This document shows positions 5,420-49,029 of a stretch of 64,000 bases of DNA, in pieces; the first letter of the stretch is position 1; each line of letters starts with the position of its first letter. The position numbers and the translations under genes are program-made. Below the pieces are notes generated by a model, which saw only the letters and a program-made list of their open reading frames with translations, did no database searches and was not told the origin of the DNA. The DNA is from Chiloscyllium plagiosum (taxonomy: Eukaryota): contig NC_057718.1 in NCBI RefSeq assembly GCF_004010195.1, positions 79,127,852 to 79,191,851 of the forward strand, read 5' to 3'.

Positions 5420-7850
5420 TTAGAAACAAAAAGACTGCAGATGCTAGAATCCAAAGTAGACAAGCTGGAGGAACACAGCAGGCCATACAGCATCAGGAGG
5501 TGGAGAAATCTATATTTCGGCTATAATCCTCCTTCAGGAATGGAGATGGGGGTACGGGGTGCTGCAGATAAAGAGGGGGTTGGGTCTGTGTGGGGAGAGG
5601 GGCAGAGTGGTGAGGTAGTGATAGGTGAATACAGATGGTGGGTATGAACTTGTTGGTTGATGGAAGGAATGAATCCAGTTGGTGGCTGGGAAAAAGGGTT
5701 GGTAGGATGAATGGAAGGCTGGAGGCAGGGCTGGAGAGGGAGTTGGGATGTGTGGGAAGGTAATTTGAAGTTGGAGAACTTAATGTTGAGTTCTCCAGGC
5801 AGTAGGCTGCCCAATTGGGAGATAAGATGTTGTTCCTCCAGTTTGCGGTCTGATTCACTGTGGCCGAGGATGGACATGTTGGAGAGGGAGTGGGAAGGGG
5901 GCTTCAAGTGGGCAGTGACCGAGAGGTCAGGCTGGCCCTTTTGGGTCTGTCTGAGGTGCTCTGTGAAACGATGGCCCATCAGGCCACCATCTTCCACACT
6001 GTCCGTGACCTCATCACCTCCGGTGATCTCCCCTCTACCGTCTCTAATATCGTAGGCCCCCAGCCCTGCACTGCCCAGTTCTACCTGCTCCACAAGTCCA
6101 ACTACACTGACCAAACCATCATCTCCGCATGTTCCTGCCCCACTGAACTGATTTCTTCCTACCTCAACTCTATTCTCTCCCCTTGGTGCAGGCGCTTCCC
6201 ACCTACATCCAGGACACAACCATGCCCTCCACCTCTTCAGAAACTTGCAGTTCCCCAGCCCCCAGTGCTGCTCCTTCACTATGGGCGTGCAGTCTTTTTA
6301 TACACGTCCATTCCCCACAGTGCCCTCTGTTTCTTCCCCTCCAAGGACCCATACAATCCCTTTCCACGAATACCCTCCAACATCTTGCCGAATTAGTCCT
6401 CACCTTCAATAACTTTTCTTTCAATTCTTCCCATTTCCTCCAAATCCAGGGGGTGGTCATGGGCACTTACATAGGCCCTAGCAATGCCTGCCTTTTTATC
6501 GGCTACGTGGAACAGTCCCTCTTCAGCACATACACAGATACTCTTCCCCAACTTTTCTGCCGTTTCATTGATGACTGCATCAGTACCGTATACTGCATCC
6601 AGGCTGAACTGAAGCAGTTCATCGACTCTGCAAGCAATTTACACTCTACCTCAAATTCACTTGGCCTATCTCGAACACCTCCCTCCCCGAGCTTGACCTC
6701 TTTTTCCATCTCTCGCGACAGTTTATGGACTAACGTTTACTACAAACCCACAGACTCTCATAACTATCTGGACTACACCACCTCCTACCCTGTATCCTAC
6801 AAAACCTCCATCCTGTTTTTCCAATTCCTCTGTCTCTGTTGCATCTGCTCTGATGAGGAGACATTCCACTAACAAGCATCCCACCTATTTTCACTGTCTA
6901 TCATCCAGACAGCCCTCCATCACATCTCCTCCATGCCCCACTTCACTGCTCTAAACCCCCGCATTCCCCACCCACTAAATGTAATAAAGACACAGTCCTC
7001 CTTGTTCTCTCATTCCATTGCACTAGTCTCTGCATCCAGCATATCATCCTCAAACACTTCAGCCAACTCCAACTGGACCCCACCACAAAGAACATCTTCC
7101 CTTCCCCACCCATCTCTACCTTCTGCAAAGACCATTCCCTCTGTCACTCCTTGGTTCACGCCACTCTCTTCCCCTGCGACCATAAAAGGTGTAAAACCTG
7201 CAGGCACACTACCTCTCTCCTACTATAGAAGTTCACCTGTCTCTTCAACCTAGTTTACTCCATCCGGTGCTCCCAATGTGTCTTCCCTACATCGGGGATA
7301 CCAAATGTAAACTAGGGGAACGTTTTGTTGAGCAATTCAGCCAGGCCTATAAGGGCCAACCTGACCTCCTAGTCACCGCCCGTTTCAATTCCCTTTCCCA
7401 CACCATCTCTGAAATGTTCGTCCTCGGCCTTCTTCGTTGTCAGAGTGAATCAGACCGTACGTTGGAGGAACAGCACCCAATCTTCTGTCTGGGCAGCCTA
7501 GAGAACTCAACAGTGAGTTCTCCAATTTCAAATAACCTTCCCACCCATTCCCTGACTCCCTCTCTAGCCCCACCTCCTCCCTTCCATTCCCCCAATCCTT
7601 CCTTCCAGCTACTAATGGGATTCATTCCTCCCATCAACCGACCAATTCATACCCACCATCTGTATTCACCTATCCCTACTGCGCCATTCCAACCCTCTCC
7701 CCACCCATAATCCGCTACCGCCAAACCTTATCTGCAGCTCCCCCATATCCCCATTTCCATTCCTGAAGAAGAGTATACTCGAAATGCTGACTTCTCCACC
7801 TCCTGATGCTGTCTGGCTTGCTGTTCTCCTCCAGCCTCCTGCTTGTCTAC
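5420..7850 (+). mobile_element. Penelope-like retroelement (RT + GIY-YIG) with inverted 5' pseudo-LTR
   Basis: RT motifs FLQIQGVVMG and RFIDDC; GIY-YIG-type YIGDTKCKLGERF. 5420-5970 is an inverted copy of the 3' end. 14-bp TSD TTCT(C/A)AAAGTTCAG at 5406-5419 and 7851-7864. Frameshifted. Inserted in a CR1 tail. Confidence 0.9.
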
Positions 7851-8685
7851 TTCTAAAAGTTCAGAGCAAGCTGAATGGCCAAATGGCCTACTTCTACTCC
7901 CGATTTAAATGTTTGGAAGTTGCAGTCAGAAACCTTGATGAGTTACTGCAATACATCTTGTTAGTGCTACACCTTACTGTTACTGCATCAACACTGCTGT
8001 AGTGTATGTTTTTACATTTAAACAGCAATAAATCTTCACATTTCAAATGGGAGATTACTTGACAGATCATGTTAAAATACAATTAAGCTCTGTTTCCCAT
8101 ATTGAAGATTGGTCTTTGATTTAATCACTAGGTGATTCATGCTTATTAAAAATTAAATGTTGTGGCTGTAATGTATTAAGCATACTGCATTGATGGGTCA
8201 TTAAGTTTCAGTGAAAGGTGAATTTGTCACTTATTCAGAACAAATTGTATAGTAAACTGTCTGTAAACTCCTTTTACTCAGCCACTCATCAGTAGCACCT
8301 TAAATTTACTTCTCTTTGAGTTTGTCTGTACTTGCTTTCAACAGTCAAGCAATCAGCAGTTCACTTTTTGTACCTGTCATTTTGGATTAACATGCCTACA
8401 GGAGCTGATGATGTGCTCCTCCTCTTGTTCTCACGTGCTCAGTATATCGGTGGCATCTGACCCCTTTTAACTTTCAGCCAGTCTCATTTGATAAAGAGCG
8501 TAAAGTTAGTGTGGCTGGTGACAAGAATCTGAAATAATTCCTTGAAATACACACAGGAAGCATTGTGTTTCCAGTTTTTAAAAATATATTCACATGATAT
8601 AATGTCAAGTGCTTTGCCAGTAAAAATTTGAAATGTGTTAGATATGTTAGAATAGTTTTAATGTGATCTTGTTCTTTGAAAATAG

Positions 8686-8786
8686 GGGTTCGAGTGTCCC
8701 TGAAAATGACCGTCTAGCGTCCATAGCAGCTGAACTGCAATTCAAGTCATTAAGCCGACATTCCAGTCCCACTGAAGATCGTGAGG
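8686..8786 (+). CDS. MAP3K4: MAP3K4 coding exon (101 nt)
   Basis: AATAG acceptor, GTAAGG donor; encodes GSSVPENDRLASIAAELQFKSLSRHSSPTEDRE. Confidence 0.97.
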
Positions 8787-9189
8787 GTAAGGAAGTGGCG
8801 GTTCCTTGATGTAAGGAACTTAAGATGGTGTTTTATAACAGCCAATAACTGACCCTGTCCACCCTATTTGCATCAAATTGCTGAACACCCAACTTCCCTT
8901 CCTGGCCACTGTTTACTGATTTTGTTAATGGTTTTCTCTCTTCACATACTGTTCTCATCTCCATTAAATCTGCTGCACCCAAAAAATTAGTTAATCCCAA
9001 CCACCCCTAACTTTACAACCTTCCTGTCATAACTGGAGGCTCCCATTTATTTTCTTTGAATGTTCTGTCACCTCCCAAATCATGTCTATCTTTCTTGCAA
9101 TTCCATATTTGAACTCCTGCAATCAAGGTTCTGCTCCAGAGCATTTGAATTCACAAATGACTCCCAAGTCTCTTTGTACTTCAAATTCA

Positions 9190-11000
9190 TGAAATCTTTC
9201 CACATTTAATAGTCTACACTGTTATTCTTTCTACCAAAGTGCGTAACCTACACTTCTCCACATTGTATTCCATATGCTACTACTTGGCCCTCTCTCCTAG
9301 CTGGCCAAGCCTTCCTGTAGCCACCCCACTTCCTCAGTGCTACCTGCCCCTCCACCTATCTTTTTGTCATCTGCAAATTTAGAATTAATGCCTTCCGTTC
9401 CTTTGTCCAGATTGTTAATGTAAAACATGAATAGTTGTAATCCCATCTGCCATCCTGAAAAAGACCCCTTTATCCATATTCTTTGCCTTCTGCCAGTCAG
9501 CTAGTCCTCCAATCCATGCCAGTAACTTTCCCCTAATACAATGGGCTGCTATCTTATTTAACAGCATCCCATGTGGCACTTGTCAAAGGCCTTCTGGAAA
9601 TCCAAATATATCACAGCAACTGGCTGGGTTTTGTTTAACTTGCTCATTACATCCTGAAAGGATTCCAACAGATTTGGCAGGCATGACCCCCCCTTGACAA
9701 AGCTGTGCTGCCTCAGCCCTATTTGACCATGCATTTCTGAGTACTCTGCAATCTCATCCTTAATGGACTCTTTCCAGTGACTGAGGTCAGGCTAACCAGC
9801 CCATTGTTTCCTGTCTTCCATCTCCCTTTCTTAAACAGAGGTGTAACGTTTGGCATTTTCTAGTCCTCTGGGATCCTCCCTGACTCAAGTGACTCCTAAA
9901 TGATCACCACTGATGCCTCTAACATCTCCTCAACTACCTCCTTCAGAACTCTGGGGTGTAGTCCATCTGGTCTGGGTGATTTATCCACTGTCAGACCTTT
10001 CAGCTTTCCCAGCACCTTCTCCTTAGTGATGGCTACAACATTTCCATCTGTCCCCTGACTCTCTCGAAGTTTCATATGCTGTTGGTGTCTTCCATTGTGA
10101 AGACTAATGCAAAGTACTTATTCAAAACCTCCGCCTTTCTTTGATCCCCATTACTAGTACTTCACCCTCCTTTTCTAGCAGTCCAAGGTCAACTCTTGCC
10201 TCTCTCTTTTAGATATCTTAGAAAAAAAATTGCTTGCAATTTTCATTTATTTTACAAGCTAGCTTACTGCCCTATTTCATCATCTACTCCTGAATGCTTT
10301 TTTAGTTATCTTCTGCTGGTTTTTAAAACCTTCCCAATCCTCTGGCTTCTCACTAATCTTCATTGTATGCTTTTTCTTTTACTTTTGTACTTTCCCTGAT
10401 GTTCCTTGTCAGCCATGGTTGCCTCATCTTCCCTTCATGTTTCTTCTTCCTTTGCAGGACTTTCTGCTTCCATCACAGATTACCCCCACAAACTCCTGTC
10501 ATTGCTGCTCCACTATCTTCCCTGCTCGGCTCCCCTTCCAATCATCTGTGTGCAGATCTCCCTCTTAAGCTGCAGGGTGAATTCTGTCATATTATGGTCA
10601 CTGTCTTCTAAGGCTTCCTTCATCTTAAGTAATGTCTTCCTCATTATACATCACCTAATCCAGAACTGCCAGTTTCCTTTGGGGTCTGCCGCAAGCTGGT
10701 CCAAAACAAAATCATCTCATATGCATTCCATGAGTTCCTTTTTTGAGATCTGTTACCAACCTAATTTTGCTCAACAATGCATGTTGAAGTCCCCCATGAT
10801 TATTGTAATAGAGATTGCTTCTTGCATCCCTTTTCCATCTCCTGTTTCCCCCCACCCCCGACATATCCTGACTACTGCTAGGAAGCCTTAACACAACTCC
10901 CATCAGGGTCTTTTTTACCTTTTGCGGTTCCTCAACTGTACCCAGACAGACTCTGTGCTTTCCAAGTCTGGATGTAATGGATCTTTCCTTTCAAAGATGT
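9190..11000 (-). mobile_element. CR1 LINE ORF2 fragment (RT and part of endonuclease), degraded
   Basis: Minus strand gives YLDFQKAFDK (near 9580-9610) and KFADD-like sequence (near 9360-9380). Confidence 0.8.
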
Positions 11001-11479
11001 GTGGAATTATCTCTGATTCAGTACTCTCTCACACAGTGTCAATATGGAAGATATGTGCAGGGTGGGCCCTAACACAAACTTTGCACATTATGTTTAGCCT
11101 CATTGACTCACGTTAAAATGTAACATCTTAGCTGTAGTAACCAATATCACTGTTCAAGGATTAATAACATCTGATGCAATCTGCAATCAGGAAATTGGAT
11201 GCTTGTGAGAGATGAGCAGTCCTTGGTTATTACAACTTCTTTCATCTTTGCAATGTCTGAAGAAGCTGCTCATTGGTCAGATGTGGCTTAACCATGTGCA
11301 ACAGAAACCAGAGCTGACTTTTTGAGTGCAAGTGCATTTTTATTTACAGAAGTGCAAGATAACTTAGTGATGTAATTGCAATAATAACTTAGCTGTATAA
11401 CCTGTGTACCCAGGTATATTTTGTCTTTTACCTCCCACTATGTCAACTTGAAACCTGATTACTGCAGCTGGGATGGATG

Positions 11480-13150
11480 CCTAGAGTGTCCAGGCCCACT
11501 GAAAATCTGTCATTCAGTTGCAGGCTCACCCTTCTCAGTGATGACATACAAACTTTAGCATCATAAGCAGATGGGCCTCTCTGGAATCTCCTGGGAGGAA
11601 GTTTCTAGAGATCCTGTGTTTGACAATTCTTCCTAATTTTGCAACTCCCCATCTTGCTGGAAGGAAGAAGAACCTGAAATGAGCTACGGGTCACTTCTGG
11701 CCTTGCCATGAAACTGAGCACATGGTTAGAACAATACTGTAAATTTGTGTGTCTGTCAAGTAGATGGTGTACTGGATCTGACTGTCCATGGTGGTTGCCA
11801 ATCTCTCCATGAAAATGTCCAGATGACAAAGCCAGCATTGGACTGATGATATGGGTGGTCTCCTCTAACCTTTTGATCCAGCTTACAGAATGCCTCTGTC
11901 AAATTTGCCTGATGTTCCTGTAACTGTCTGTGTTTTCAACAATCAGTAATGGCGAGACCACGGGATCAGTGTTGGCTTAGCGGTAATCAGGTAACTGTTC
12001 TCAGGCAGTCCTCTGAGTACCAGAGGGCTAGGGCATTACTTCCCCCGTTTGTTTCACAGATTCAAACTTGTGATGCGCTCACTAGACTGTGCTCTTCAGT
12101 CAAATCTAGAAGAGTTGCTAGCAAGGTGAATATTTGAGCTTGTTGTTTGAAGATCTAGCTGAAAGTCTTGTCAGTACATCCTCTGAGCTGGAATTAAGGG
12201 TCTTTGTGACTGTTTTGGAACAGAGGGAAATTGGATACTGCTGCAGCTTGCACGAGCAAAGAAAGGGAATCAGTTGTGTAAGACAGATAAAGCTTTGCAA
12301 ATTAAGAATGAGTTACTGGCGATCATAATGGGGGTAATGCGCAGCCCAGCATAATGAAGCTTAGTAGTTTGGTTGCTCTTTGGGATACCCCTCTCCCCAT
12401 GAGTTGTCATGCTCTTCTCCAGCTTGCTCAAATACTTTTTTTTCGTGATGTGAAGAGTTTTATGTCCACCACTTCGCCATTGTTTTTCACCTTCTCAGAT
12501 CAATTGATAGAAAGTTTTTTCTGAGACTGTGATTAAGTATGCTATGATTGGAAGAGCTGTTGGTGGTGATGCAGTAGCGGAAGGGATGGTGAGGTGACCC
12601 AGTGAAGGAGTGAGAAATACAGAGAGCAGGAAAGGTTAGTAGTTTGGAAGGAGAGGATGTGTGAGAGCCATTGAATGTGCAGCTCTTGGTGAGAGTATGT
12701 GCAGTGGCCTGTGATTTTGATGTATCTGAGAGAAGATGGTGGCGCTTGAACTCTCAAAGCACAGAAGATGACTCAAACATCTTTCTGTGGTGCTTTGCAT
12801 TCCATTTTATCCAGGCCACTGTCTGGGTCTAGGCAATTTGCCTGGCGTAGCCTCCTTTGCTGGTTTGCATGATAAATCACTGCCCTCCTTTCTACAGTAC
12901 AGTCCACCAGCACTCCAGTCACTATTAGCAAAGCAGGGAGCTAACTTAATTTTCTGGGCCATGTCTTCCATGATGATGGCACAGCATCACAATGTGAAGG
13001 GCAGTTCCTGGCTTGCATTATGTAATTGGTTTGCAGCTGGGCTTTAAATATCGTGCCAGTGGTTTGAATACAGGAAGGTCCTGACAGTAGTGAGTACTTC
13101 TGCATCTTCTACAATGTTCTAATTCATGAAGTGAAGTATGAAAAGTTGCC
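11480..13150 (-). mobile_element. Ancient RTE-clade LINE remnants
   Basis: Fragmentary similarity to RTE RT and C-terminal sequence; resembles 58150-59900. Confidence 0.45.
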
Positions 13151-13176
13151 TGAGAAAAACCACATAGTCAAAGTGG

Positions 13177-13290
13177 ATAGATGTGAAGTTAGAAAAGCAC
13201 AGCAGGTCATCATGCTGTCCGACCTGCTTTGCTTTTCCAGCTTAACATCTATTGACTCTGACTTCCAGCATCTGCAGTCCTTATTGTCGC
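13177..13290. mobile_element. Fold-back mini-element derived from a Penelope pseudo-LTR
   Basis: 32-bp inverted repeat (13177-13208 / 13221-13252); 14-bp TSD CATAG(TC/CT)AAAGTGG. Confidence 0.75.
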
Positions 13291-14002
13291 CATAGCTAAA
13301 GTGGGCCTCATTCTATCAATTGGCTTGACAAAACACTTCTAACTCCAAATGAAAAAATTAATATCTACAGTGAAAGTATATTTGAGAAATTTCAAATACA
13401 AGAAATTGATGAATTACCAAGTCTTGATGGCTTGCACTCATAGCTTTATAAAGAGGTAGTTACAGAGCTAGTGGATGTACCAGTCATCTTCCAAAATTTG
13501 CCAGATTCATGAATGATCCCAGTGGATTGGAAATGTGATACCATTGTTCAAGAAAACAGGTTGATGTTAGGCGTCAGGAAAACATTAAAGAAGTCTTAAT
13601 AATGCACTTTGATAACCATAGCATGATTTTATGAAAAAGATTTTTGACACATTAATTTTTCAGGATGTAACTAGCAAGGTACGTAAAGGGGAGCTAGTGT
13701 GCGTAGTTTACATTTTTTTTTAACGGTATTTTATAGACTACCATACAAAACGCTAAATATGTAATATAGGGGTGATAAAATTGAGTGTGTTATGTTAACA
13801 TGGATAGAGGATTGGCTAACAAATAGGAAGCAGTGTGTCAGTGGAAACGGGACAAGCTGTATCTAGTAGAGTGCCTCGACATTTACTGTGAGGGTCAGAG
13901 TTATTTACAAATCTATGATTGTAGTATGATAGAAACTGAGACGGTGGAGAGAGGCTGAACAGGAATGAAATTTGTTTACTGATACTCAGAGACTTGGGTA
14001 TG

Positions 14003-14219
14003 TAGTCAGTTCTGCTATTATGTAGTAGTTCCGTTCTCGAGCAATCCCGTATTATAAGAAAATCACATAATAGCAGCACCATTTAAACTAATGGGGCTGG
14101 ATTCACATTATAACCAATACACATCGTAAAAGTTTGTGTTATAGAAAGTGTCCCCACTTCATCAATTCTGTTATAGCGAATTTGCATTAAAGAAAAGCAT
14201 GCTATAGCAGAACAACCTG
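14003..14219. mobile_element. Tigger/pogo-type MITE, copy 1
   Basis: TIRs AGTCAGTTCTGCTAT...ATAGCAGAACAACCTG|TA; similar to 51497-51677. Confidence 0.75.
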
Positions 14220-14537
14220 TACATGGAATGTCAAAAGAAAATAGCACGCAGGTAGAACAAGCAGTTAAAGAAGGCACATGGCATCTTATTGCAATGGGAT
14301 TTCTGCACTTTAAGCCCCACCTGGAGTACTGTGTGGAGTTTTGCCCTCCATATTTAAGATATTTTGCATTGGAGGTTGTACAGTGATGTTTTGTTAGGAA
14401 TTTCCTGGGATTAGAGGGGTTTACAATATAGGCTAAGAAAATTTGGTCCTAAAGGTTTTATTGAAATAGAATTGATTCCGAAGTAGGTTTGATGGAGTGG
14501 ATACTGAAGTTGTCTCTGTTGGTTGGACACAAGGACA

Positions 14538-14837
14538 TTAGATTAGATTACATTACAGTGTGGAAACAGGCCCTTCGGCCCAACAAGTCCACACCGACCC
14601 ACCGAAGCGCAACCCACCCGTACCCCTTACCTAACACTATGGGCAATTTAGCATGGCCAATTCACCTGACCTGCACATCTTTGGACTGTGGGAGGAAACC
14701 GGAGCACCCAGAGGAAACCCATGCAGACACGGGGAGAACGTGCAAACTCCATACAGTCAGTTGCCTGAGGCGGGAATTGAACCCGGGTCTCCGGCGCTGT
14801 GAGGCAACAGTGCTAACCACTGTGCCACCGTGCCGCC
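14538..14837 (-). mobile_element. Young HE1/V-SINE-type tRNA-derived SINE
   Basis: A and B boxes, central GTGTGGAGTTTGCACGTTCTCCCCGTG-type domain, (TCTAA)n tail, GACAT flanking direct repeat. Confidence 0.9.
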
Positions 14838-15060
14838 GACATGGAGAATAAGATTTAAATCATTTAGGTCAGAAATGAGAAGTGTCTTCATCCTAATATT
14901 GTGAATTTGGAATTCTGTGTGCCAGAATGTTGAAGATGTTCCATTGTTAACTATATTTAAGACTGAGGATCCATGTCATATTTTTTATGTTTGACATCTT
15001 TTCAGTATTAATTACATTGTAGTTGTAGACTTGACTGAGTTTACTAATTTGTTTCCCCAG

Positions 15061-15141
15061 AACCTATATATCCTAAAGGAGATCCCAGTGTTAGTGCACG
15101 CAGAAGCTGGGAGCTTCGCTCTCTGTTAAGTCAGCCAAAAG
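15061..15141 (+). CDS. MAP3K4: MAP3K4 coding exon (81 nt, phase 1-1)
   Basis: TTTCCCCAG acceptor, GTAAGA donor; encodes (E)PIYPKGDPSVSARRSWELRSLLSQPK. Confidence 0.95.
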
Positions 15142-16795
15142 GTAAGAACATCATTCTGAATATGCAGATTGATGCAATTTGACATTTTTTCTGTAAAAGT
15201 TGGGAGTTTTGACACTGTTTAGAATATTTTGCCTTTTAGCTTGCTGTCAGTTTTATTTTAAACAAAATGTGTCATATTGACTTAGTTCCCTTGGCCTCGA
15301 CAAATTAGCATCTGCAAATCTTTTCGATAAAATTGTCAAATTTGGCAAGAAGAATACACAACAATGTAGTATTTACATAATTTATATTGCACAGTTTTGA
15401 GATTTAAAGGGATTGGGTGACCTGGTAAATTAATCACTTTAAGTTAGTGTACAGGTACGCCAAGTGATTTGTAAGGCAAATGGAATTTGTTGTTTAAGAG
15501 TTAATAGGTTATAAAAGTGCAAGTGCTTTGCTGTTGTTGTACAGAGGGTTGGAGTACTGTGTATACTTTTGAAGTTCTCACTTCCCTACGTTTTAGGTTT
15601 TTCATGTATCCTCACCAATGCCACTTGCCATTTTCTTGATGTTTGGAATGCACTGGTGCTTAATGATATTTGATTGCACTACAGCTTGGTTTTGCGCACT
15701 CACACTTGGTCTGACTCACTATAGTGAAGTATAATTGTGTGTAGTTCCTCAATTGCAATACGATATTATCTTATTTTCTGTCACCTGTGTGTATTGCTAC
15801 TAGGTTACTGCACAACTTGTCATTAAGATTATATTTTGTTAATGTCTGATATTGCGTGTCCATGCTCTGAAAACTATTGGACAAATCAACACAAATTGTG
15901 TCTATGCCAGACAACCATTGGAATTTGTAGTTTAAAAGGCAGGAAAGTGAAAATTGAGCATTTTTTCCTTTTCTTGTCATTTTCTTCATCTTGCCTAATC
16001 CAGAAGGTGTTTGATGCACAAAAACCACAGCCCATCAGAGAACAAGTCACGAACAAACAAGTGACCATCTGCATTTGCTGTATATTGATCATGAGCAGGA
16101 AATTTCTTTGTTAAACTGGTGCTGTGAGATGATTGTACCTAATTCAGCATAAACTAAGCATTAATTTTGGAATGTTTTGGTTCTTAATAGTTCAGTTACT
16201 CACTGGATAAATTTTCTAAACTATGTGAGAAGACTGTTACCCTTTATGTTAAAACTTATATTGGTCATATTTGGGCTTTGGCATATTTTCATGAGATCCA
16301 TAGGAATATAAGAATTAAGAGCAGAAATATACCACTTCACCCTTTTGAGACCTGCTCAGCCATTCAGTAAGATCACAGATGATTTCGTTGTTGTCTCAAC
16401 TTCACCTTTCTATCTGACTCACTTGTGTTCCCTGATGAGTGCAGTTACACTTTGGTTAGTAGTAGTACAGATTTTAGCATGTTCCTCAATCTTATCTGTT
16501 TCCTCCCTCCCTCATGTGGATGGTGACGGATGTTTGGCACATCTCAGCAGGGGTTAAGAACCTCTGATTTATTATTATGTAAGGGTTTGATCTATTGGCA
16601 GTCGTTTCATTACAGGGATATCTGCAGTGATTCCAGCACAAGTCACTGATTAAGGATCAAGAGTAATATGTTCAACTAGTTTCCCTTCCGAAACAATATC
16701 CGGAAGCTCACTGGCCCCTTTGCTGAGATTCATTTAACTTAGCACATGCTTAACATTAAAGTAACAATTGGCCAGTAAAATTCCACGCTATGTAT

Positions 16796-17108
16796 GGGCG
16801 GCACAGTGGGTGGCACAGTGGTTAGCACTGCTGCCTCACAGCGCCAGAGACCCGGGTTCAATTCCCGCCTCAGGCGACTGACTGTGTGGAGTTTGCACGT
16901 TCTCCCCGTGTCTGCGTGAGTTTGCTCCGGTTTCCTCCCACAGTCCAAAGATGTGCAGGTCAGGTGAATTGGCCATGCTAAATTGCCCGTAGTGTTAGGT
17001 AAGGGGTAAATGTAGGGGTATGGGTGGGTTGCGCTTCGGCGGGACGGTGTGGACTTGTTGGGCCGAAGAGCCTGTTTCCACACTGTAAGTAATCTAATCT
17101 AATCTAAT
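16796..17108 (+). mobile_element. Young HE1/V-SINE-type tRNA-derived SINE
   Basis: TGGCACAGTGG A box, GGTTCAATTCC B box, V-type domain, (TAATC)n tail, CpGs retained. Confidence 0.92.
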
Positions 17109-17466
17109 ATAATGTCTCTACTCAGTTGCTGGAAATCTCCTTCATCCAATTTACAATCTTACTATTGAAATATTTCTTCTTAGCCTTGATACCTTTTTTC
17201 TCTGATTTGCTTCCATCTCTATTTTACATGTACTGCTTCCCTCCATAAAGCTACACGAACTGCTGACAAATATCAGAAGGAGCTCAATTTACTTAAAATA
17301 GTAATTAATCTGTGAAACATGACACAAACTGAAAAAATTATTTTGTAAATGAAATGTTGCCTAATCTACAGAGGCCTTATGCATTTAGCATTGTGGGAGA
17401 AGAAGGCAAGAAGATCTCACCAATTATTTGATGTATTTTACAAATTGAATGTGTTTGATTTCCCAG

Positions 17467-17658
17467 ATATAGCTGCTAAGCAAAGTCGAATTGACATTGT
17501 TCGCAAGTCAATTAAATCCTTTGAGGAGCAACAGAACCAGCAGATGAAGCAAAAGAATATCATTGGCCAAGTCTGTGACATTCCGAAATCTTACGATAAT
17601 GTCATGCAAGTTGGATTAAGAAAAGTAACATTTAAGTGGCAGAGAGGAAACAAAATAG
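17467..17658 (+). CDS. MAP3K4: MAP3K4 coding exon (192 nt), CRIB-like region and kinase start
   Basis: TTTCCCAG acceptor, GTAATG donor; encodes DIAAKQ...KNIIGQVCDIPKSYDNVMQVGLRKVTFKWQRGNKI. Confidence 0.97.
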
Positions 17659-18335: not shown

Positions 18336-18355
18336 GTAAATCACTTCATATTTGG

Positions 18356-35120: not shown

Positions 35121-35159
35121 GGTTGCCAGAATATACAGGACCCAAGCTGTACATAAGTA

Positions 35160-36790: not shown

Positions 36791-37092
36791 CTCCACAACT
36801 TAACTCTGGATTTTCTTTGGGAAAATGGTGGTTTCAAGAATACAAAATTTTCATAAAGTACATATCCAGAGAGAAAAGACATGCATTTATTTGCATCCTC
36901 TCATGCCCCAGCAATATCTTGAAAGGCTTCATAGTGCCTGACTTATTTTGAAATGCAGCTGCTACTGTTATGTTGGCAAACAGAGCAGCCCCTTGCAAAA
37001 ACCAAAATCCTGAAAAGCGATGAGGTGTACATAATGTGAACAATTTCTGATTAACTCAATTTTTCTCACATTTTTTTGTTTATTTTTAAAAG

Positions 37093-37199
37093 CTTACATG
37101 GCTCCTGAAGTTATTACTAGAGCAAAAGGTGAAGGGCATGGACGTGCTGCAGATGTTTGGAGCCTGGGGTGTGTCCTTGTGGAAATGGTCACAGGCAAG
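37093..37199 (+). CDS. MAP3K4: MAP3K4 kinase exon (107 nt), APE motif
   Basis: Long T tract then AAAAG acceptor, GTGAGA donor; encodes [36 protein letters not shown]. Confidence 0.98.
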
Positions 37200-38869
37200 G
37201 TGAGAAGTTAAATGTTGGTAGATATGATGCTCAATATTGAAAACACATCTTAGTGAATGCCACACCATGTAATAACTTTGCACCAGCAAAAAAGTGATTT
37301 GGGTTGAATTGGATCACAATTTTCACTCCTATGATTCAAATGTACCTAAAAGGGTGATTGAAAGAGCTTTCTGTGACCTTATGGTGTCCTCCTTTTCCAG
37401 TTCAGTGGAGTTAGAGCAGAACAGCACTTGTAGCCTGGGTATTCCAATGGTCAGTTAGTCAGTGAAGCAATGCAGTCTGGAGTTGTGCAGCAGGACACTA
37501 CAGCAGAATGTTGGAGTTTCTTGGGAAATCGATTCCGTTGGGCAATTCGCCTCGATGTGGAATCCTTTTTTTTAAGACAAAACTTACATTGGAGAAATCT
37601 GCTTTTCCACTTTCATTAGTAGTTACCAGAAAAAGTTGGAGGATTTTAAAAAAATATCTAATTTTGGTGACCAATCCTCCTCGTCATCCTCCTCTTCTCC
37701 ACTCCCCCAACTCCCTTGATTCCAGTATCCCTTACACCTAAACAGGCCCCTTTCAACCCAACATGATTCCCTGAGACTAATTCTCCCACCCCCTTCACTG
37801 TTAGCTCTGGCACCCTTTCCATCTGGCAACTTATAACTCCACATTTAACTTGTATACTAAAAGTTTTGCATGAACTGTCATTTGTCTGGCTGTCCTGCTG
37901 GATATTTTAAATTTGAGAAGACAATACATTATTGCTAAAGGGTCAGTGATTTGACCGCCCTTGACTATTCTGCTCTACAGGGGTGTGCTGTGTTGATTTC
38001 AGTTTTGCTCCACCTTTCTGAAGAAGACAGAATCAGAATTCCCCACCAGAAATGTAGAGCTCAATATTTTAAAAAGAGTGCATGACCATCAACTGTGCTT
38101 GCCAGTCCTTGGAATATCTGGCCTTTATTGTTGCATGCTGTGTGCACCAAAGAATACTGGTCACATGACTGATGTATTAGATCTGTACTTTTTGTTTACT
38201 GTTCCATTGGCTGTCCACTATCTCTATGTGAAAAAGCAGTCAATGAATTGGTCAACATTAATCTAGACACTCATGAGTTCTCTCAGACATGACTTTGAAA
38301 GTTTGCATATGTGATTTCAAAAAAATGTCTGTGTGGAGAAATAGACCTAAAGCAGTGATTATTCATGTTAAGGAGAGATGGAGTTACGCCACCTCCACGC
38401 TGCCTCGTTGGGAGTTCTGGAAGCCTTTGCTGGATTTGAAGTAGATGTAGTCATTCAATGCAATTATTCCTTAAACTTGTTAGTTTATGTCCAGAAAAGT
38501 TTAAAATTGTCCATGTCTGTCAAGCTGTTTTGTGTTTTTTTGATATAAATTTCGATGGTTTATTCAAATATCTCAAAAAACACCTCACAATATAAAAAAA
38601 AGTTGATCTCTGAAATGTTTTGAAGTGGTTTCTTGAGCCTGCACAATCAGAAAGATGATGATTCAGGCCACACCCAAGAAAGTACAAGATATGAGTCAGC
38701 CTGTTAAAACTCATCAGTTAATGATACCTTAATTTTAATGTAACAGTTGACAGCAACTTACTCTGTTACAAGCTCTTTTTTGATTGTAGGACAAAAGAAA
38801 TCAATCAGTACTAGTAACATACTTTATGAACTTGTAGTTTAGTATCAAGTAGGGCCAGTGCTGTACACT

Positions 38870-39315
38870 GAATTCTGCAAATGCTGTGGGCCGTGACAAC
38901 ATTCTGGCAATAGTACTGAAGAGTTGTGGTCCAGAACTCGTCCTATCCCTAGTGAAGCTATTCCAGCTACAACACTAGCATCGAAGTGAGAATGTGAAAA
39001 GTTGTCCAGTATGTTCTATTCTCAAAAAGCAGGACAAACCAAACATTCAGTTACTTCATTTATCAATCTATATCAGCAATGTGATGGGAGGAGTTGTCAA
39101 CAGTACTATCAAACAGCACCTGCAAAGGAATAATTTGCTTAGTGACACTAAGTTGAGATTCTGCCAGGGCTATCTGGCTCTTGACTTCATTGCAATCTTC
39201 GTTCAAACAAGGAAGAAAAAGGACTGAACTCTGGTGGTGAAGTAAAAATGACTGCTCTTGATATCAAAGTAGCATTTGACCAATGATAGCATTAAGTAGC
39301 CCAAGCAAAACCTGA
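38870..39315 (+). mobile_element. RT fragment of the same LINE family as 35160-36790
   Basis: KKQDKPN...IKQHLQRNNLLSDTKLRFCQG and ALDIKVAFD. Confidence 0.75.
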
Positions 39316-39779
39316 ATTATAAATAATTAAACCATGTCACAACTTATAGATTTAGGGATTAAAGCTGGGCTAACTCCAGAGCTACACTACCATTTGTTGG
39401 TTTTTTTCTACATACTGGTTATTTCAAACGTTGTTTGTTTTACATGCTATTTCTATCCCAGTTAATTTGTTTTGCTTGTAAATTACCACTATTAGTGCTG
39501 TTTTTGCTGTTCTCAAAGATGTGTCTACATGTTTGCTTTTTTCTCTCCCTTTGATTGAGTGTCTCCTGTAGTTGTTATGGCAGTGACAGGTAAGCTCACC
39601 TCAACTTCGCAAATAGCTCACAAAACTGCTAAGGTGGGAAGAAAAGTTCCAGAAGGTCATCCATGTATGTTATGGCATCCTTACAGACCATGTCCAAACC
39701 ATTGTAAGCACAGACATATTATTGTCAGTGGGAAAATGTGCTGAGTTTGATTGGAGGAGAGCTGAGTGAGGGAGAGGCA

Positions 39780-41290
39780 GCATCTGTAGGAAGTTACTCT
39801 CCAATTCTGTTTCTTTTGAGGTGTTCTCCCAGCTCCTCCCAACTTCTGCATTTAGAGTTTCACATAACTCAGGAAAAAAAATTCTCCTACCTCTATTTTA
39901 AAAGGAAAACCTCTTCTGAGGCTGCGTGCCTTTAGTTGTAGTCTACCTCACAAGAAGGAAAATCTTCCTGGTGTGCACCCTGTCAATCTTCTCAATCTTG
40001 CATGTTTCAGTCAGATGACCTGTTAGTTTTCCAAATTCCATTGGTTACAGTCCCACCCTCTTTAATTATTCCTTATAAGGTAATCCCAGGAGTGACTCAT
40101 GTGAACCTGCTTTGTGCTACATCTGAAGTAATTTAAAATCATATTTAAAATAAGGAGATGAAATCTGTGCCATACTCCCTTGGAATAAACACCAGCATTC
40201 CATTTTCATTTCTAATCACATTCTGTGTCTGCCTACTAAATTTGTAATTCATGTACCAGGACACCCAGATCCCTATGTTATCACCAAGTTTAGCAATTTG
40301 TCTCCATTTAATTGTATAGTGCTTTTCTATTCTTAGTGTCAAAATAGACAAGTTCACTTTTTCTCAATATTAAATTCCAACTGCAAGTTCTTTTTTGTTC
40401 ACTCTCTTAACTATCCATATGTTTGACAAATTCTCTACCTCTTAAAATTTTCAATCTTTCTTAGTCACCATTGATAAATATTTAACGTCCATATATTTGA
40501 ACCCTTTCATCCAAATCATTGATATAGAAAGTAAATAATAAAGGCCTCAGCATTGATCATCGTGGCACTCCAGTAGTTACAGCATCTCAACCTGGAAGAG
40601 ATCTATTTATTTTTATTTTCTGCATCCTGTTAATTAATTCTGTATTCTTACTGATGTTTTGCCCCTATACAATGTGAACTTAATCTTGTGTGATCTTTGA
40701 TGTGGCTCCTTTTTGAATGCCTTTTGGAAATACAAATGCCTTCTACAGGTTCTGATTTATTCCATATTGCTTGCTAATTCCTCAAAAAGAAAGCTAAGTA
40801 TAATTTCTCTTTCACAAAGCCATGTTGCTACCTAATAACATTATACTTTTAAGTGTCCTCTGTAATTGTCTGTCATAATAGATTCCAGCAATTTTCCTGT
40901 GATAGATGTTAGGCTATCTGCTTTATTGTTTCCTGCTTTCTGTGTCTATTTATTATTTTCTAATCCATTGTGGGCTTTCTAGAATCTAAAAAAATTTGCA
41001 AGGTTATAATCAATGCAATCACTGGCCATTTATTTCCTGATCCCAGGAAACTGGCCACTTGGTCCTCTGGAATTTGCCTCCCTTTGGGTTTAATAGCCTC
41101 TAAAGAGCCTTTTTTTCTGGCAGTGATGATTATCTTATGTTCCTCACTCCTTACCAATATCTTGATTTTCTGTTAACTTAGGGAAGTTTTCAAAGTCTTT
41201 CTATAATGAAGACAGACCAAAAAACCTGTTCAAAGCCCTTGTCTTCCATTATTAATTCCCAGGCTCGACTCTAGGGGATCAACACCACCT
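39780..41290 (-). mobile_element. Old CR1 LINE
   Basis: Minus-strand FQKAF-type motif near 40710-40730 and NENGMLVFIPR. Confidence 0.65.
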
Positions 41291-41554
41291 TTAAATGCTC
41301 ATTGTCTATTTAAATGATTGAGGGTATTCTTATATTCTGTCATTGTTACCATTGTTGGAGAAGGCAGCCTCTTAGGCCAAGATAGTGAGTGAACTGAATA
41401 TTGGTTGAAGATTGAGATCCAATTCCTTCTCTGCCTGTGCACTTTCAACTGGGATGTGACTTCTCCTGGAAATACATTATTCATGACTCTGTCAGGCTCT
41501 TGGCTATCCTATCACCGGTAAGGCTGCGAAATGCGGAGCAACAATTGCTGCATC

Positions 41555-41990
41555 TGTAGTCATTGCGAGAGGAGCTGAATACCAAAGTAGGGAGGTTGTA
41601 CTTCAGATAAACAAGGTACCGGTCTGACCAGATATGCAATACTGTGCAGAGTCCTGGTCTTCACATTGAAAGAAAGATGTAATTGTGTTGGAAGCAGTTC
41701 AGAGACAACTTAACTGGAATGGGAGGTTTGTATCCTCTGGAATTTGGAAGAGTAAGAGATGTTTGATTTAAAATATACAAACTCCTGAGAGGTCTCGACA
41801 GATTGGATATGGGGATAACGTTTCCTTTTTATTGGGGATCTAGAACTACATATCACTATTTAAAATTAAGGCTTGTCCTTTCAGGGTATCATTTTTCCAA
41901 AGATCTTTGGAACTGTTCCCCTAAAGGCAATGGAAACATTTTTGAGGTATTTGAATATTTTTAAGACTGAAGTGAATAGAGTCTTTGTAA
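41555..41990 (+). mobile_element. Old CR1 3' fragment
   Basis: Decayed EYQSREVVLQ...YCAESWS and LEAVQR motifs. Confidence 0.6.
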
Positions 41991-42175
41991 GGTAAAGGTA
42001 AGGCCATCGTAGTCCCTGAATGCTAATGGCTGCTTGGTTAGAGAGATGGAGACCACTACTGGTGGTTTAATTTGTGTCATCACACCTCAGGCCAGTTGCT
42101 ATTGCATCTGGGAATTGAATCTGCGCTACTGGTATCACTCTGCATCACAAACCAGCTGTTCAGCCAACTAAGGTC
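41990..42175 (-). mobile_element. Old tRNA-derived SINE with (ACCTTT) tail
   Basis: AAGGTAAAGGTAAGG tail and B-box-like GATTCAATTCCC on the minus strand; related to 24605-24782 and 49030-49365. Confidence 0.55.
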
Positions 42176-42288
42176 AACAAACAGAACAACTTGAATATTT
42201 CATATTGCTAAAACTTTATAATTAAACTTTAATTTCAATGGTTTATGAACTCTAACTACTTTAAAAGCTTTTGTTTTTTGAATTTTAG

Positions 42289-42468
42289 AGACCTTGGCAT
42301 GAATATGAACATAACTTCCAAATAATGTACAAGGTAGGAATGGGTCACAAGCCTCCCATCCCGGAGAGATTAAGTCCAGAAGGCAAAGATTTCCTGTCTC
42401 ATTGCCTAGAGAGTGATCCAAAACACCGGTGGACATCTAGTCAACTCCTAGATCATCCATTTGTTAAG
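42289..42468 (+). CDS. MAP3K4: MAP3K4 kinase exon (180 nt)
   Basis: TTTTAG acceptor, GTGACT donor; encodes RPWHEYEHNFQIMYKVGMGHKPPIPERLSPEGKDFLSHCLESDPKHRWTSSQLLDHPFVK. Confidence 0.98.
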
Positions 42469-42979
42469 GTGACTGCTGAGAGTGCAATATATAGCTAAAG
42501 CCAACTTTTCCAAATTCAGGACTTTCAGTCAGGTTGCACAATGTTTGGATTGTGAGCATAAATGCAAGTTACTGTGTCATTTGTTGTAGTATGGTGTTAA
42601 CTCAGCATTATGCAAAGACGTAGATTTATACAGAGCTCGCTGCATTTTGGATGTTATAGCCATGCTTGGGATTTTTCGGGATATGTTAACACAATGTTTT
42701 TAAAACCTATCAGCTGCACTTGGCTGACACCTTTGTAATCAATGGTGATTATTCCCACTTTAGTCAGTTTAAAAGTGATATGACTGATATCTTCTTTAGA
42801 ATGGAAAGACACATCCTGAAAACTGACTTATTTTACAAGTACAAATGTCATAAATTGGATTGATGTCCAGGTCATATCTACATGTTACGACAACGATTTA
42901 GCCCTTGATTATGTGCTATTATTTTCAACTAAGCTGCTAACATTCAAACAATAACTCGGCCTGAATGTTATTTTTCCAG

Positions 42980-46920: not shown

Positions 46921-48445
46921 TTTTACATTAAGCATGAATTGTTTTATCTAACACCTGAAGTGTTACACAGAAGTGCAATTTGCTGATGCATTTCAAGCGA
47001 TTTAAAAATATGCAATGTACTTCATGGTAAGCCCCTTCCACAACCCATGTGACTGGAAGACTTTGCATCAGTAGATACAAAAATTACAGGGAATTAAAAT
47101 GAGAGGCTATGATTAAAGGACATATGTACAAAACACACTACTTGTCCTTTTCTATTTTTATTTGGTTTATGTGATAAAAAAAAGTTTTAGCCATACAAGT
47201 ATCATGCCACATGCTATATTTTAAAAGCAGTTACTTAGATGAATATTCAGGAACTCTTGAAGTTGGTCTGTGCAGGGAAAGTAAATAGGAGGTGTAAACA
47301 GCTGTGGAGCTTTATTCAAGACTATCGGGCTTAGTATTATGTAAAGACAGCAACATTCCTTCACAGGGAATACTGATCCTATACATTGCAACTCAGTAAG
47401 AAAGTTGGAATTAACTTTGTGGTTCTTCAGTTTCATTAGTTTGGGGAGATGTTGCCAAACAGAGCACATAAGACATTAGGCCAGATGGCAATGGGGAGAA
47501 AAAAGTCATGGACTAGAATGGATGAATAAACTTTTCAAATATTAGTGTAAATCTCTGAAGTACTGAAGTTGTATTGCTGTTGTGAAAGGCACTATATAAA
47601 AACGTGCTGAAATGGACCATAACTATATCTTCAAGTTATAAGTGAACTTCCCCACAATTCCAAATGTTAATTCAATATTGCTCAAGGCTGAACTGAGACA
47701 GGAAAGTTTTTAGTTATACAGTACTTAGCTCCTGCCATAGAAACAATATGTTCAGTCAGATCATCATAATCCATACTTAACCATTTTTACTCCTTGCAAG
47801 ACTATCCACTAATAAAAGAGTGGAAAATAATTATTGGTGGAAGAGAGTTCCACAATTGTTTCACTTTGATTTTGTTTAATTGTCATTCAGACAATTGATA
47901 CAAGTAATGTTTTTGTTCATGTTCATAAGTAATAAAAGTAGAGAATTATATATTACATTGAAACAGTGAATTAGACATTCATAATTAAAATGTTTCTGCA
48001 AAGATTTCACAAGGACTCCATTTAACGATCACAGTGCAGGTGATTATATTGTTTTGGTCTCTTGCTGCATGATGTAGCTTTAAATGATTTAAATTAATAA
48101 TAGCATTATTTAGTTTAATATCCCAGTGAGATCCTGAATTGAAAAATGTACAGGTCTTTGTCTAAAGCTAAGTAGGCAGTTGAATACTTGAGTTAAACTC
48201 CTTAAGTCATGGAATGCAGAATACAGCTCCCAGAATACAGAATTTATGAGCAGAGATCAAAATATCATACAAATGGTGCGAGTGGAGTGTTGAATAATAA
48301 GTCTCTGCAAGTGACCAAGGGCGTTGGACAGTGAGTAAAGTGTCAACAGCTGAATAATAACCGATTAAATGAGGCAGAGATAATTAGAAAATTAAAAATA
48401 AAGGTGGTGCTGGAGACAATGTGACTGGAATTTGAGTATATTTGA

Positions 48446-48653
48446 AATCAGAGCTGAAAATGTGTTGCTGGAAAAGCGCAGCAGGTCAGGCAGCATCCAA
48501 GGAACAGGAGAATCGACGTTTCGGGCATAAGCCCTTCAGGAATCTGGGGAGGAAGAGAGCTTCTTCAAGGAAGGCATCCTTGTAAGAGGGTTCACAGTAG
48601 GTTAAAATCTTCGAGGAGAAAGTGAGGGCTGCAGATGCTGGAGATCAGCATCT
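48446..48653 (-). mobile_element. Young, circularly permuted Penelope pseudo-LTR mini-insertion
   Basis: CpG-intact pseudo-LTR (GGGCTTATGCCCGAAACGTCG); AAATCA at both ends (48445-48450 and 48654-48659). Confidence 0.75.
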
Positions 48654-49029
48654 AAATCACACAAGCTTTCAGAGTGTAGCTGTCAAAGGGGCTGCGCTCT
48701 GAAAGCTTGTGACAATTTGTATGTTTTTTTTATCTCTGCCCAGAAATTCTGTGCTTTCCCCTCACCACCTGACAAAGAGGCTATGCTCCAAAAGCTTGTG
48801 ATTTCAAATATCTGCATTGATAAACTAACTTAGAGGAACAAAAAGAATTCCAAGACAACTTCACTATTTAGTACTTCAGAGAGAGTGGTCATACATGTCA
48901 TCACATAAAAGGTCCAAGACATTTAACATACAATGTTATGCATATACTTTCTTTGCTGCCAGTTAACAATAAATAAAGGCTGGATTCTGGTACATCCTTG
49001 GGTAATTTTCTCAGCAATTGCTATATTAC

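Follow-up and report, generated by a model that had tools for sequence, protein, structure and literature searches.

Probable fossils of minimal hammerhead ribozymes in the end repeats of Penelope-like elements of a shark

Known hammerheads of Penelope-like elements

Minimal hammerhead ribozymes (min-HHRs) were described in 2014 in the pseudo-long terminal repeats (pLTRs) of metazoan Penelope-like elements (PLEs) (Cervera & De la Pena 2014, PMC4209133). The motif described there combines several features: type I order; a base between A9 and G10.1; a G10.1-C11.1 pair; a palindromic 15.2-16.2 segment without a helix III loop; and a helix I of 3-4 bp. Several families occur per genome, mostly as single dispersed copies, with some close opposite-strand pairs. 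The repeats analysed here, from the shark Chiloscyllium plagiosum, share all of these traits. The consensus line of supplement file 2, CUGANGAH G..C GAAAN palindrome NUH, matches the families in the window (the whole 64,000-nt stretch of DNA analysed). There are also differences from that description: the families come from a cartilaginous fish, which supplement file 2 does not mention; helix II has 3-5 bp, versus 5-8 in most of the examples listed; and families A and B have an internal helix I mismatch.

The initial annotation viewed the shark repeats as a diversified system of this lineage. However, PMC4209133 already records the same design for coelacanth and Xenopus, each genome having several consensus families. 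The kind itself is known, and what is new is the extension of the 2014 observation to a shark.

PAc, a Poseidon element of Anolis carolinensis, likewise is reported with a pLTR hammerhead, with genomic copies that end sharply in a 3′ tail, and with public RNA data lacking ends at the cut site (Frangieh et al. 2024, PMC11167929). The shark elements differ in carrying a zinc finger of the Neptune/Nematis type in the linker between reverse transcriptase (RT) and endonuclease (EN). The start codon as given for PAc lies 26 nt 5′ of the cut, whereas the shark repeats have a conserved ATG on the 3′ side of the predicted cut, about 20 nt away.

Non-LTR retrozymes, reported from one chondrichthyan genome, also join type I hammerheads to short repeats derived from PLE pLTRs (PMC7229834; Li, Clavereau & Pollet 2026, 10.64898/2026.07.22.740005). 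Rare head-to-tail joints in shark contigs suggest a similar arrangement elsewhere in the genome. The definition of a non-LTR retrozyme asks for two or more successive tandem units, each with a complete hammerhead, whereas the window holds no tandem array of two complete motifs. Moreover, the shark motifs are minimal, not canonical as described for retrozymes, and many are joined to RT/EN sequence. Conserved intronic hammerheads of amniotes (PMC7229834) share with the shark motifs a place within a host intron.

Sites and repeat families

The initial annotation listed eleven sites, named here by position, and all are present at those coordinates: three on the plus strand (7763, 32498, and 48768) and eight on the minus strand. 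Ten have an end module of about 120 nt in common. A profile built from these ten (48768 was left out) was searched against the window, with the reversed window as control. By construction it recovers its seed sites (E 1e-26 to 5e-18); it also finds two non-seed family copies on the minus strand (59241, E 1.8e-11; 27668, E 7.3e-8) and tail-only pieces at 13212, 59253, and 13209. The best E in the control is only 0.27. Site 48768 is placed outside the shared module because its profile E is only 5.5. It represents a separate repeat family, D, on which public contigs and reads stack, with two further pieces at 48655-48712. Families A-D bear out the proposal of at least four sequence families.

The ribozyme motif by itself is hardly above chance in the window. 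A strict descriptor (CTGANGA-stem-GAAA-NN-T-H) has one match (27947, minus strand) versus 0.03 expected, a count reached by 1 of 40 shuffles. Core-only and relaxed descriptors have 2 matches versus 0.38 expected (3 of 40 shuffles) and 21 versus 15.5 (4 of 40). Likewise, an Rfam search of the window returned no hammerhead among its seven matches at E<=10, a blank that would be expected for motifs without a helix III loop. The relaxed count and the Rfam blank are what speak for chance as the source of all matches, an explanation that is almost certainly wrong: the core is restored by public reads for two families (B and D); family alignments already refute chance; and the motifs keep one fixed position within the repeat modules, which is why the sites are judged real. 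Pattern scans found no related loci in viral contigs or metagenomes; 14 pattern matches from metagenomes did not align beyond the 21-25 nt of the pattern itself and were discounted as chance.

Table 1. Coordinates of element, hammerhead, and host features in the window
Feature	Positions	Strand	State and basis
Element E1, family A	5454..7852		Decayed RT + GIY-YIG about 5968-7503 (+), 3′ end repeat; tblastn with P0123/P0122
Inverted 5′-truncated copy abutting E1	5454-5961	-	Self-blast vs 7852-7330, 75%
Element E2, family B1	19520..21368	-	Decayed RT + GIY-YIG (21368 to 19892), end repeat
Element E3, family B2	27847..28619	-	GIY-YIG region (28619 to 28009), end repeat
Element E4, family A	28642..30801	-	Decayed RT + GIY-YIG (30473 to 28914), end repeat
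Element E5, family C	30808..32625	+	Decayed RT + GIY-YIG (30808-31747, 32083-32280), another repeat interrupting, end repeat
Hammerhead, family A	5507..5541	-	A9 to G; third pair of helix II broken
Hammerhead, family A, sense, intronic	7759..7792	+	Core and GAAA intact, helix II perfect; U16.1 to C, palindrome lost
Two back-to-back tail-only end-module pieces	13168..13290	.	No ribozyme part; profile, pattern scan
Hammerhead, family C, solo	18420..18457	-	Core repeat with 3-nt loss
Hammerhead, family C	19228..19266	-	Core 3-nt loss; G12 to A
Hammerhead, family B	19592..19624	-	Core 3-nt loss; G12 to A
Complete solo unit of ~130 nt, family B	25288..25417	-	Hammerhead 25382-25417 (G12 to A), ATG-hairpin segment, tail
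End fragment, family C	27605..27834	-	Extra broken hammerhead, about 27670-27700, absent from the first list
Best-kept hammerhead (E3, family B2), antisense to MAP3K4	27916..27951	-	CUGAUGA, GAAA, AUC triplet intact
Hammerhead, family A	28727..28761	-	Decay of core and helix II
Hammerhead, family C, sense, intronic	32495..32535	+	G8 to U; G12 lost
Permuted unit, family B	48447..48650	-	Tail segment upstream of near-consensus hammerhead 48511-48543; 3-nt core loss; joint 48643 back to 48447, loose ends at 48537/48538
Two back-to-back partial motifs, family D	48655..48712	.	Not in the first list
Hammerhead, family D, downstream of last coding exon	48765..48810	+	G8 and G12 to A
Inverted pair of end pieces, family C	59159..59330	.	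Hammerhead about 59218-59241 (-), helix II wholly lost
MAP3K4, last ten coding exons	3535..42480	+	Host context only
MAP3K4 exons 1-5 of ten	3535-3654, 8687-8785, 15060-15140, 17466-17660, 22201-22269	+	
MAP3K4 exons 6-10 of ten	24916-25032, 32798-32959, 34053-34172, 37092-37199, 42289-42480	+	

Neptune-type elements

Six of the eleven sites (5515, 7763, 19595, 27917, 28728, and 32498) lie directly 3′ of decayed same-strand RT/GIY-YIG frames, 60-270 nt from the frame end (tblastn, queries P0123 and P0122). RT followed by a C-terminal GIY-YIG domain, with CxxC between GIY and YIG, is present for families A, B, and C; EN-region DNA identity among the elements is 59-75%. The nearest named protein, P0123, matches RVT_1 and GIY-YIG and contains YIDD, a C-x5-CxxC linker, and CxxC before YIG. 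GIY-YIG Pfam matches are weak (E 0.01-0.04), and Pfam searches of the decayed window frames themselves gave no RT match.

The RT-EN linker contains a zinc finger (CX2-5CxxC; residues 318-326 of P0123), with decayed counterparts in E1 and E3. Such a finger is described for Neptune and Nematis, and as absent from Penelope and Poseidon, in bioRxiv 2021.04.23.441226. Two features of EN+ PLE pLTRs are also present: a 3′ tail end at 48614, and the inverted 5′-truncated copy of E1, an arrangement described for PLEs. Sites 5515 and 7763 look like inverted end repeats of one insertion. The elements are probably Neptune-type PLEs, the linker finger being also a Nematis trait. No RT/EN match was found near 48768 in the window by tblastn, so the Penelope origin of family D is only putative.

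Family-level design and pairing

Location 3′ of RT/EN and the order of the core agree with the proposal of minimal type I hammerheads, as predicted ribozymes, in PLE pLTRs. At the family level the design reads: CUGANGA; an extra base; helix II, closed by G10.1-C11.1; GAAA; the 15.2-16.2 palindrome, without a helix III loop; and NUH. The initial annotation had made its case depend on CUGANGA, GAAA, and NUH standing in register, as they do. The core is based on thousands of contigs plus reads for family B and on RNA reads for family D; for A and C it is reconstructed from window alignments only.

The unpaired catalytic bases (CUGANGA, GAAA, and UH) are common to A-D while the helices differ. The helix III palindrome is ACGU in families A-C and AGCU in D (AUAU in two decayed copies). 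Helix I is 4 bp long in sites 18425 and 28728 and 3 bp long in 48768; five A/B copies have three of four pairs, with one mismatch. Covariation of the stems had been suggested, and between families it is apparent by eye: across the four families, helices I and II and the helix III palindrome differ and still pair, in copies too few and too decayed for statistics of the R-scape type. The particular stems GAG/CTC and GAGC/GCTC, in contrast, are single-copy changes, the first missing from sister repeat 5515 and from 28728, the second below 10% in same-species contigs. Against simple decay, single copies carry two or three double transitions that keep a pair, more than such decay would predict (rough P 0.01-0.08 for two). 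RNAalifold on 12 tail copies found no more than a hairpin of 4 bp (covariation term -0.08), leaving long-range tail structure unsupported. Energy folding of five natural copies, as monomer and dimer, gave helix II only, by a method uninformative for a 4-nt intermolecular helix.

Could the motif have lost cleavage and be kept instead for binding of DNA or protein, as in recognition by EN or RT or in template switching at hairpins, with the apparent single-copy covariation due to quasi-palindrome repair? Site 7763 is a perfect 10-bp DNA palindrome; family D sense RNAs pass the site uncut; in vitro activity of min-HHRs is low; and one of nine Xenopus dimers was cleaved in the experiments given by Li et al. 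(2026, 10.64898/2026.07.22.740005). Yet a binding role would leave the common catalytic bases of A-D, set among differing helices, to be accounted for, and the anole PLE motif is reported to cleave with protein and to respond to C3G/G8C like a hammerhead (PMC11167929). This explanation is improbable.

Decay of the copies

Every copy in the window is broken, and the copies here are fossils. Five register tests were applied (core, GAAA, UH, palindrome, and helix II), and none of the eleven copies has all five intact. CUGANGA with the extra base before helix II is kept in three (7763, 25385, and 27917), the palindrome in five, and UH in ten (32498 scored in a shifted register). GAAA is exact in six; the others have mostly CpG-type G-to-A changes, and CpG observed/expected in the window is 0.21. 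A 3-nt core loss affects four of the listed sites plus 27668, and is shared by three of five family C copies. Sites 7763 and 27917 had been put forward as the best preserved. The latter is the best kept, its defects being a G10.1-U11.1 wobble and a broken helix III palindrome (ACAU). The former does not rank with the best as a ribozyme: UG-CU comes after its GAAA, which puts C at 16.1.

Public contigs and the short units

Family B contigs clip at 48537/48538 and then carry the 3 nt missing from window copy 48512 (524+1534 contigs in X1, 504+1403 in X12, and 451+433 RNA reads in X21). Apart from one change in the loop, the variants listed within the motif are all of CpG type (9-18%). The 3-nt loss was considered as the mark of a large ribozyme-dead subfamily of family B, and this was rejected: X1 depth drops from 5.6 million to 0.08 million past 48539, and because of this collapse the short form is taken as a small minority.

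For family D, RNA reads have G8 in 195 of 214 and G12 in 134 of 227, whereas both are in the minority in DNA contigs on 48768 (31-40% and 20-35%); the intact D core therefore rests on RNA reads together with the logic of CpG decay. The family continues into an AATAAA signal, absent from the 48768 copy. Sense RNAs that remain uncut take their poly(A) signal from the D repeat. RNA reads have no molecule-end pile-up, in a poly(A) single-cell library hardly able to show one: 5′ products lack poly(A), and the D 3′ product would be about 26 nt. The solo units of about 130 nt seem to begin at helix I, not at the cut site.

Instead of being truncated full elements, most copies might derive from short non-autonomous units of about 130 nt, either solo repeats of SINE type or tandem retrozymes, that the PLE enzyme mobilizes. 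Site 25385 is such a unit, complete from helix I through the tail; contigs stop sharply at tail 48614 (1050 and 1014 loose ends), and their agreement falls to 0.42 a few bases 5′ of the core. Head-to-tail joints from 48537/48538 to 48614 occur in 20+14 contigs (X1) and 11+15 (X12), and retrozymes are described as derived from pLTRs (Li et al. 2026, 10.64898/2026.07.22.740005). Against this, RT/EN sequence is attached at six of the eleven sites, and the window lacks a tandem array. Solo units start upstream of the core, whereas a cleaved monomer would start at the cut site, and the joints, with intervening sequence not resolved, are few versus tens of thousands of contigs. On balance this origin is unlikely, although it is the most serious competitor.

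The MAP3K4 locus

The exon query is 100% identical to P0005, annotated MAP3K4 of Chiloscyllium plagiosum. Sites 48512 and 48768 lie about 6 kb beyond the last coding exon. Conserved intronic hammerheads of amniotes are single-copy and conserved, whereas the shark motifs are high-copy, decaying repeats, mostly antisense. Sites 7763 and 32498 do lie in sense within introns, as first noted, and 7763 retains CUGAAGA, GAAA, and a perfect helix II, which might suggest that the host keeps both to cut or modulate MAP3K4 pre-mRNA. This is very improbable. Activity of the two copies is not supported, 7763 having C in place of the essential U16.1 and 32498 lacking G8 and G12; neither has a nearby same-strand partner; and both show as much decay as the copies around them (75% similarity between sister repeats). 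Intronic insertions number seven antisense versus two sense, a bias that is not significant (P 0.18) and includes no sense enrichment. No role for the hammerhead copies in MAP3K4 is indicated.

Mechanism and outlook

The sites are very likely neutral fossils of a minimal type I hammerhead in the pLTR of Neptune-type PLEs (RT plus C-terminal GIY-YIG). Position 3′ of RT/EN frames, family structure, an intact family-level core, and decay of every window copy are the direct observations here. By analogy with other PLEs, the active master RNA would be a tandem transcript, cleaved only once two motifs have paired or once the protein of the element has folded the RNA; a partner or protein would be required because helix III is only a 4-nt palindrome. 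Cleavage is predicted after GUC, GUU, or CUU. Reverse transcription would start at the tail end and mostly stop early, leaving short pieces of the element end, many of them accompanied by a second piece in inverted orientation. Once inserted, the motif would die as its CpG-rich core (CGAAACG-TCG) deaminates and its GAA/TGA repeat slips. Pairing kept between families would then be due, as proposed here, to purifying selection on the masters, not on the window copies. Counting against a needed role, the ribozyme of the anole PLE is reported as dispensable for insertion in vitro (PMC11167929).

A more speculative scenario, likewise unlikely, concerns carpet sharks. Here the end module would be a very abundant SINE-like unit of about 130 nt, with a constant 5′ end where helix I begins, 5′ of the cut, and a 3′ end at the tail where RT starts. 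Uncut RNA would be the template, with the boundary set by the folded ribozyme or, alternatively, by a splice site or start site at the ribozyme edge. In one family, the poly(A) signal about 10 nt past the cut would form a cleave-or-polyadenylate switch on transcripts ending in that family.

The finding as such matters little, every window copy being broken. What it offers is a resource: a genome with several PLE families, and with contigs on one module numbering in the tens of thousands, makes a well-powered covariation analysis possible. It also permits a test of the spread of ribozyme-dead subfamilies, and a map of insertion ends versus the cut site. Such analyses bear on the function of the PLE hammerhead in transposition.

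Hammerhead-like motifs and their repeat modules

The hammerhead motif alone scarcely exceeds chance in the window: a strict descriptor found one site against 0.03 expected, and a relaxed descriptor 21 against 15.5. An Rfam search of the window gave seven weak matches, no hammerhead among them. The eleven sites are real because their place within repeat modules is fixed, which confirms the hammerhead-like observation of the initial annotation; all 11 positions were correct. A module profile, built from ten of the eleven sites and run on the window, recovers two extra family copies (59241 and 27668) along with tail-only pieces (the tail being the sharp 3' end of the module); the best E in the reversed-window control is 0.27. 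Site 48768 scores E 5.5 and belongs to a separate family. Window alignments separate four families, A-D (Table), as the proposal of at least four had held.

Table. End-repeat families from window alignments, with family-level helices, and other repeats in the window.
Feature	Position	Helix I	Helix II	Palindrome (helix III)
Family A	5515, 7763, 28728	AUUC/GAYU	GGG/CCC (inferred)	ACGU
Family B	19595, 25385, 27917, 48512	AUUC/GAYU	GGGC/GCCC	ACGU
Family C	18425, 19230, 32498; also 27668, 59241	AGUU/AACU	GAGUC/GACUC or GGGUC-type	ACGU
Family D	48768; pieces at 48655-48712	CAC/GUG	GGAGC/GCUCC	AGCU
Sixth decayed RT-EN fragment of a Penelope-like element (PLE), no end module detected	45985-46783 (-)
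Three LINE-like 3' fragments, presumably CR1 type	26266-27276, 33288-34005, 49537-50427
Three SINE-like copies, ~300 nt	14537-14837, 16797-17125, 58781-59106
Weak tRNA-like match	2764-2821
Two inverted repeat pairs (~250 nt, 92-93% alike, spaced by ~1 kb), candidate non-autonomous DNA transposons	23175-24516, 53152-54432

The associated elements

A 97-residue frame at 6357-6647 has 20 relatives among 148 candidates, those named being from whale shark and skates. The nearest named RT-EN protein (P0123) matches the RVT_1 and GIY-YIG domains and, compared back to the window, reveals six decayed RT/EN fragments. The EN end lies ~60-270 nt 5' of six of the eleven sites, on the same strand (5515, 7763, 19595, 27917, 28728, and 32498), and EN-region DNA identity of 59-75% distinguishes lineages A, B1, B2, and C; no RT/EN lies beside family D in the window. 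The RT-EN linker contains a C-x5-CxxC finger. According to the available text of Craig et al. (bioRxiv 2021.04.23.441226), this finger is present in Neptune and Nematis, whereas Penelope/Poseidon lack it; in this motif the window elements resemble the former.

An inverted, 5'-truncated copy abuts the family A element E1, a structure described for PLEs (in the available text of bioRxiv 2021.04.23.441226), so 5515 and 7763 most likely derive from a single insertion. Elsewhere, 27605-32625 is a compound insertion 5 kb long. On the minus strand, pieces of families C, B2, and A follow one another head-to-tail with short spacers between; E4 (family A) has its 5' end 7 nt from the start of a family C element on the plus strand; and inverted family C ends border both sides. 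This arrangement points to recurrent insertion at the ends of PLEs, or to switching of template from one family to another.

At 32801-32956 lies an exon with 100% identity to the protein named MAP3K4 of Chiloscyllium plagiosum. Ten MAP3K4 coding exons were mapped within the window (strand +, 3535 to 42480), so nine of the eleven sites are intronic, two sense and seven antisense; the exon map bears out the sense placement of 7763 and 32498. Sites 48512 and 48768 lie ~6 kb beyond the last coding exon. For independent intronic insertions, seven antisense versus two sense gives P 0.18, and use of the sites by the host is extremely unlikely.

Decayed copies and family-level ribozymes

Each copy was scored for five features (core, GAAA, UH, palindrome, and helix II), and none of the 11 has all five. 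Nearest to intact are 27917 (antisense; broken palindrome), 25385 (G12A), and 48512 (3-nt loss). In the two sense copies within introns, essential bases are hit: U16.1 in 7763, and G8 and G12 in 32498. Damage clusters at CpG dinucleotides (o/e 0.21 across the window) and at the core GAA/TGA repeat (four of 11 sites). Three of five family C copies (18453, 19262, and 27696, all -) have a 3-nt core loss in common, possibly marking a core-deleted subfamily.

Public DNA and RNA records were aligned to 48330-48930 at 80% likeness, which covers families B and D: 89,185 and 70,653 contigs from two DNA runs, 3,778 reads from one RNA run, and 0 from a second. Family B records clip at 48537/48538 and then supply the three bases missing from the 48512 copy, restoring CUGAAGA or CUGAUGA (524 + 1534 contigs in X1 and 504 + 1403 in X12, the DNA runs; 451 + 433 reads in the RNA run, X21). 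Among the variants listed, the family B motif shows CpG changes at C11.1/G12 (~9-18%) and one loop change. In family D, G8 is present in 195/214 and G12 in 134/227 X21 reads; DNA contigs give 31-40% and 20-35%, respectively, the decayed reference copy favouring decayed contigs. Since that bias exists, and since both CpG decay products (TG and CA) occur, CG was probably ancestral at the family D core sites.

These family-level sequences fit the published consensus line for the minimal type I hammerheads of PLEs (Cervera & De la Pena, PMC4209133), whose hallmarks, in the text available, are an extra base after A9, a G10.1-C11.1 pair, a palindrome, and many families per genome.

Helix covariation between families appears evident by eye. 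Two of the initial annotation's three stem II examples are single-copy changes. GAG/CUC occurs at 7763 only; the sister repeat 5515 keeps G-C at that pair, and 28728 also lacks GAG/CUC. GAGC/GCUC at 25385 requires G>A at 48524, which is not among the five G>A places counted in X1, all at other positions, so it is below 10% in same-species contigs. The remaining helix changes are mostly one-sided wobbles or mismatches. Two or three pair-keeping double transitions somewhat exceed the decay-only expectation (for two, a rough P of 0.01-0.08), so hairpin-templated repair, or minor subfamilies, may be involved. The annotation's interpretation is partly supported.

Cleavage and mobility

It is highly probable that the sites are decayed hammerheads of PLE pseudo-LTRs (pLTRs): anatomy, position, families, and decay are observed, and the route of cleavage is inferred. 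For cleavage, tandem RNA would have to form a 4-bp intermolecular helix III or, alternatively, the element's own protein would have to help, as in other systems: the Schistosoma mansoni motif cuts weakly and only as dimer or trimer (PMC4209133, in part), and the anole PLE motif cuts only with protein and is dispensable for insertion in vitro (PMC11167929, in part). A non-cleaving role is very unlikely.

The sharp 3' end at 48614 (1050 + 1014 contig loose ends) matches the PLE tail, tied to internal RT initiation in the available text of Frangieh et al. (PMC11167929). Short non-autonomous units as a main source of copies are doubtful, and would be compatible with PLE fossils; a SINE-like unit that runs from helix I to the tail and in one family has a poly(A) signal next to the ribozyme is unlikely. 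Four short copies (18457, 25417, 48543, and 59241) seem to start 2-6 nt 5' of the core, at the helix I 5' strand, and none at the cut site. Agreement among loose ends of contigs also falls off there, but B1 and B2 differ upstream as well. A circularly permuted family B unit (48447-48650, -) places the tail and ~100 nt of downstream family sequence 5' of the ribozyme; its joint shows in the aligned public records.

In family C, a pyrimidine run ending in CAG lies just 5' of helix I (32485-32498, +; 59190-59215, -), and a second just 5' of a conserved ATG; each resembles a splice acceptor. The intron end of D. virilis Penelope maps to helix I (PMC4209133, in part). About 20 nt 3' of the A, B, and C cut sites (e.g., 48470-48497, -) is a segment better preserved than the ribozyme, opening with ATG in ten of 11 copies examined and reading M-L-P-D-L-L-x-F/S-S-S. 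It contains a 4-bp hairpin, and some differences between families are synonymous. Candidate roles are a short upstream frame, an ORF start, or a protein-binding site.

Transcripts and standing

For one chondrichthyan, Li et al. 2026 (10.64898/2026.07.22.740005, in part) describe retrozymes and PLEs bearing hammerheads. In literature on Penelope and Chiloscyllium, a whale shark paper names Penelope just once. This kind of hammerhead is already known; those of shark PLEs may lack a detailed description.

Both strands contribute family B reads (1470 versus 986 at 48477-48497), as expected of passengers in host transcripts. No molecule-end pile-up is listed among the aligned RNA reads, from a library type unable to show a cut. 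For family D (48765-48810, +), ~220 X21 reads, nearly all ribozyme sense, span the predicted cut site uncut. Beyond 48810, 213 of them run into an AATAAA that belongs to the family, 11 more bases, and an A-run (agreement 0.92), for which a genomic A-run is an alternative source; a literature search on Penelope-like pseudo-LTR polyadenylation signals found no paper. The reads divide into two or more variant groups (107/227 have a changed A15.1 and 76/225 TT-to-AA; unphased). They fit a picture in which monomers are inactive and 3' ends come from the pLTR.
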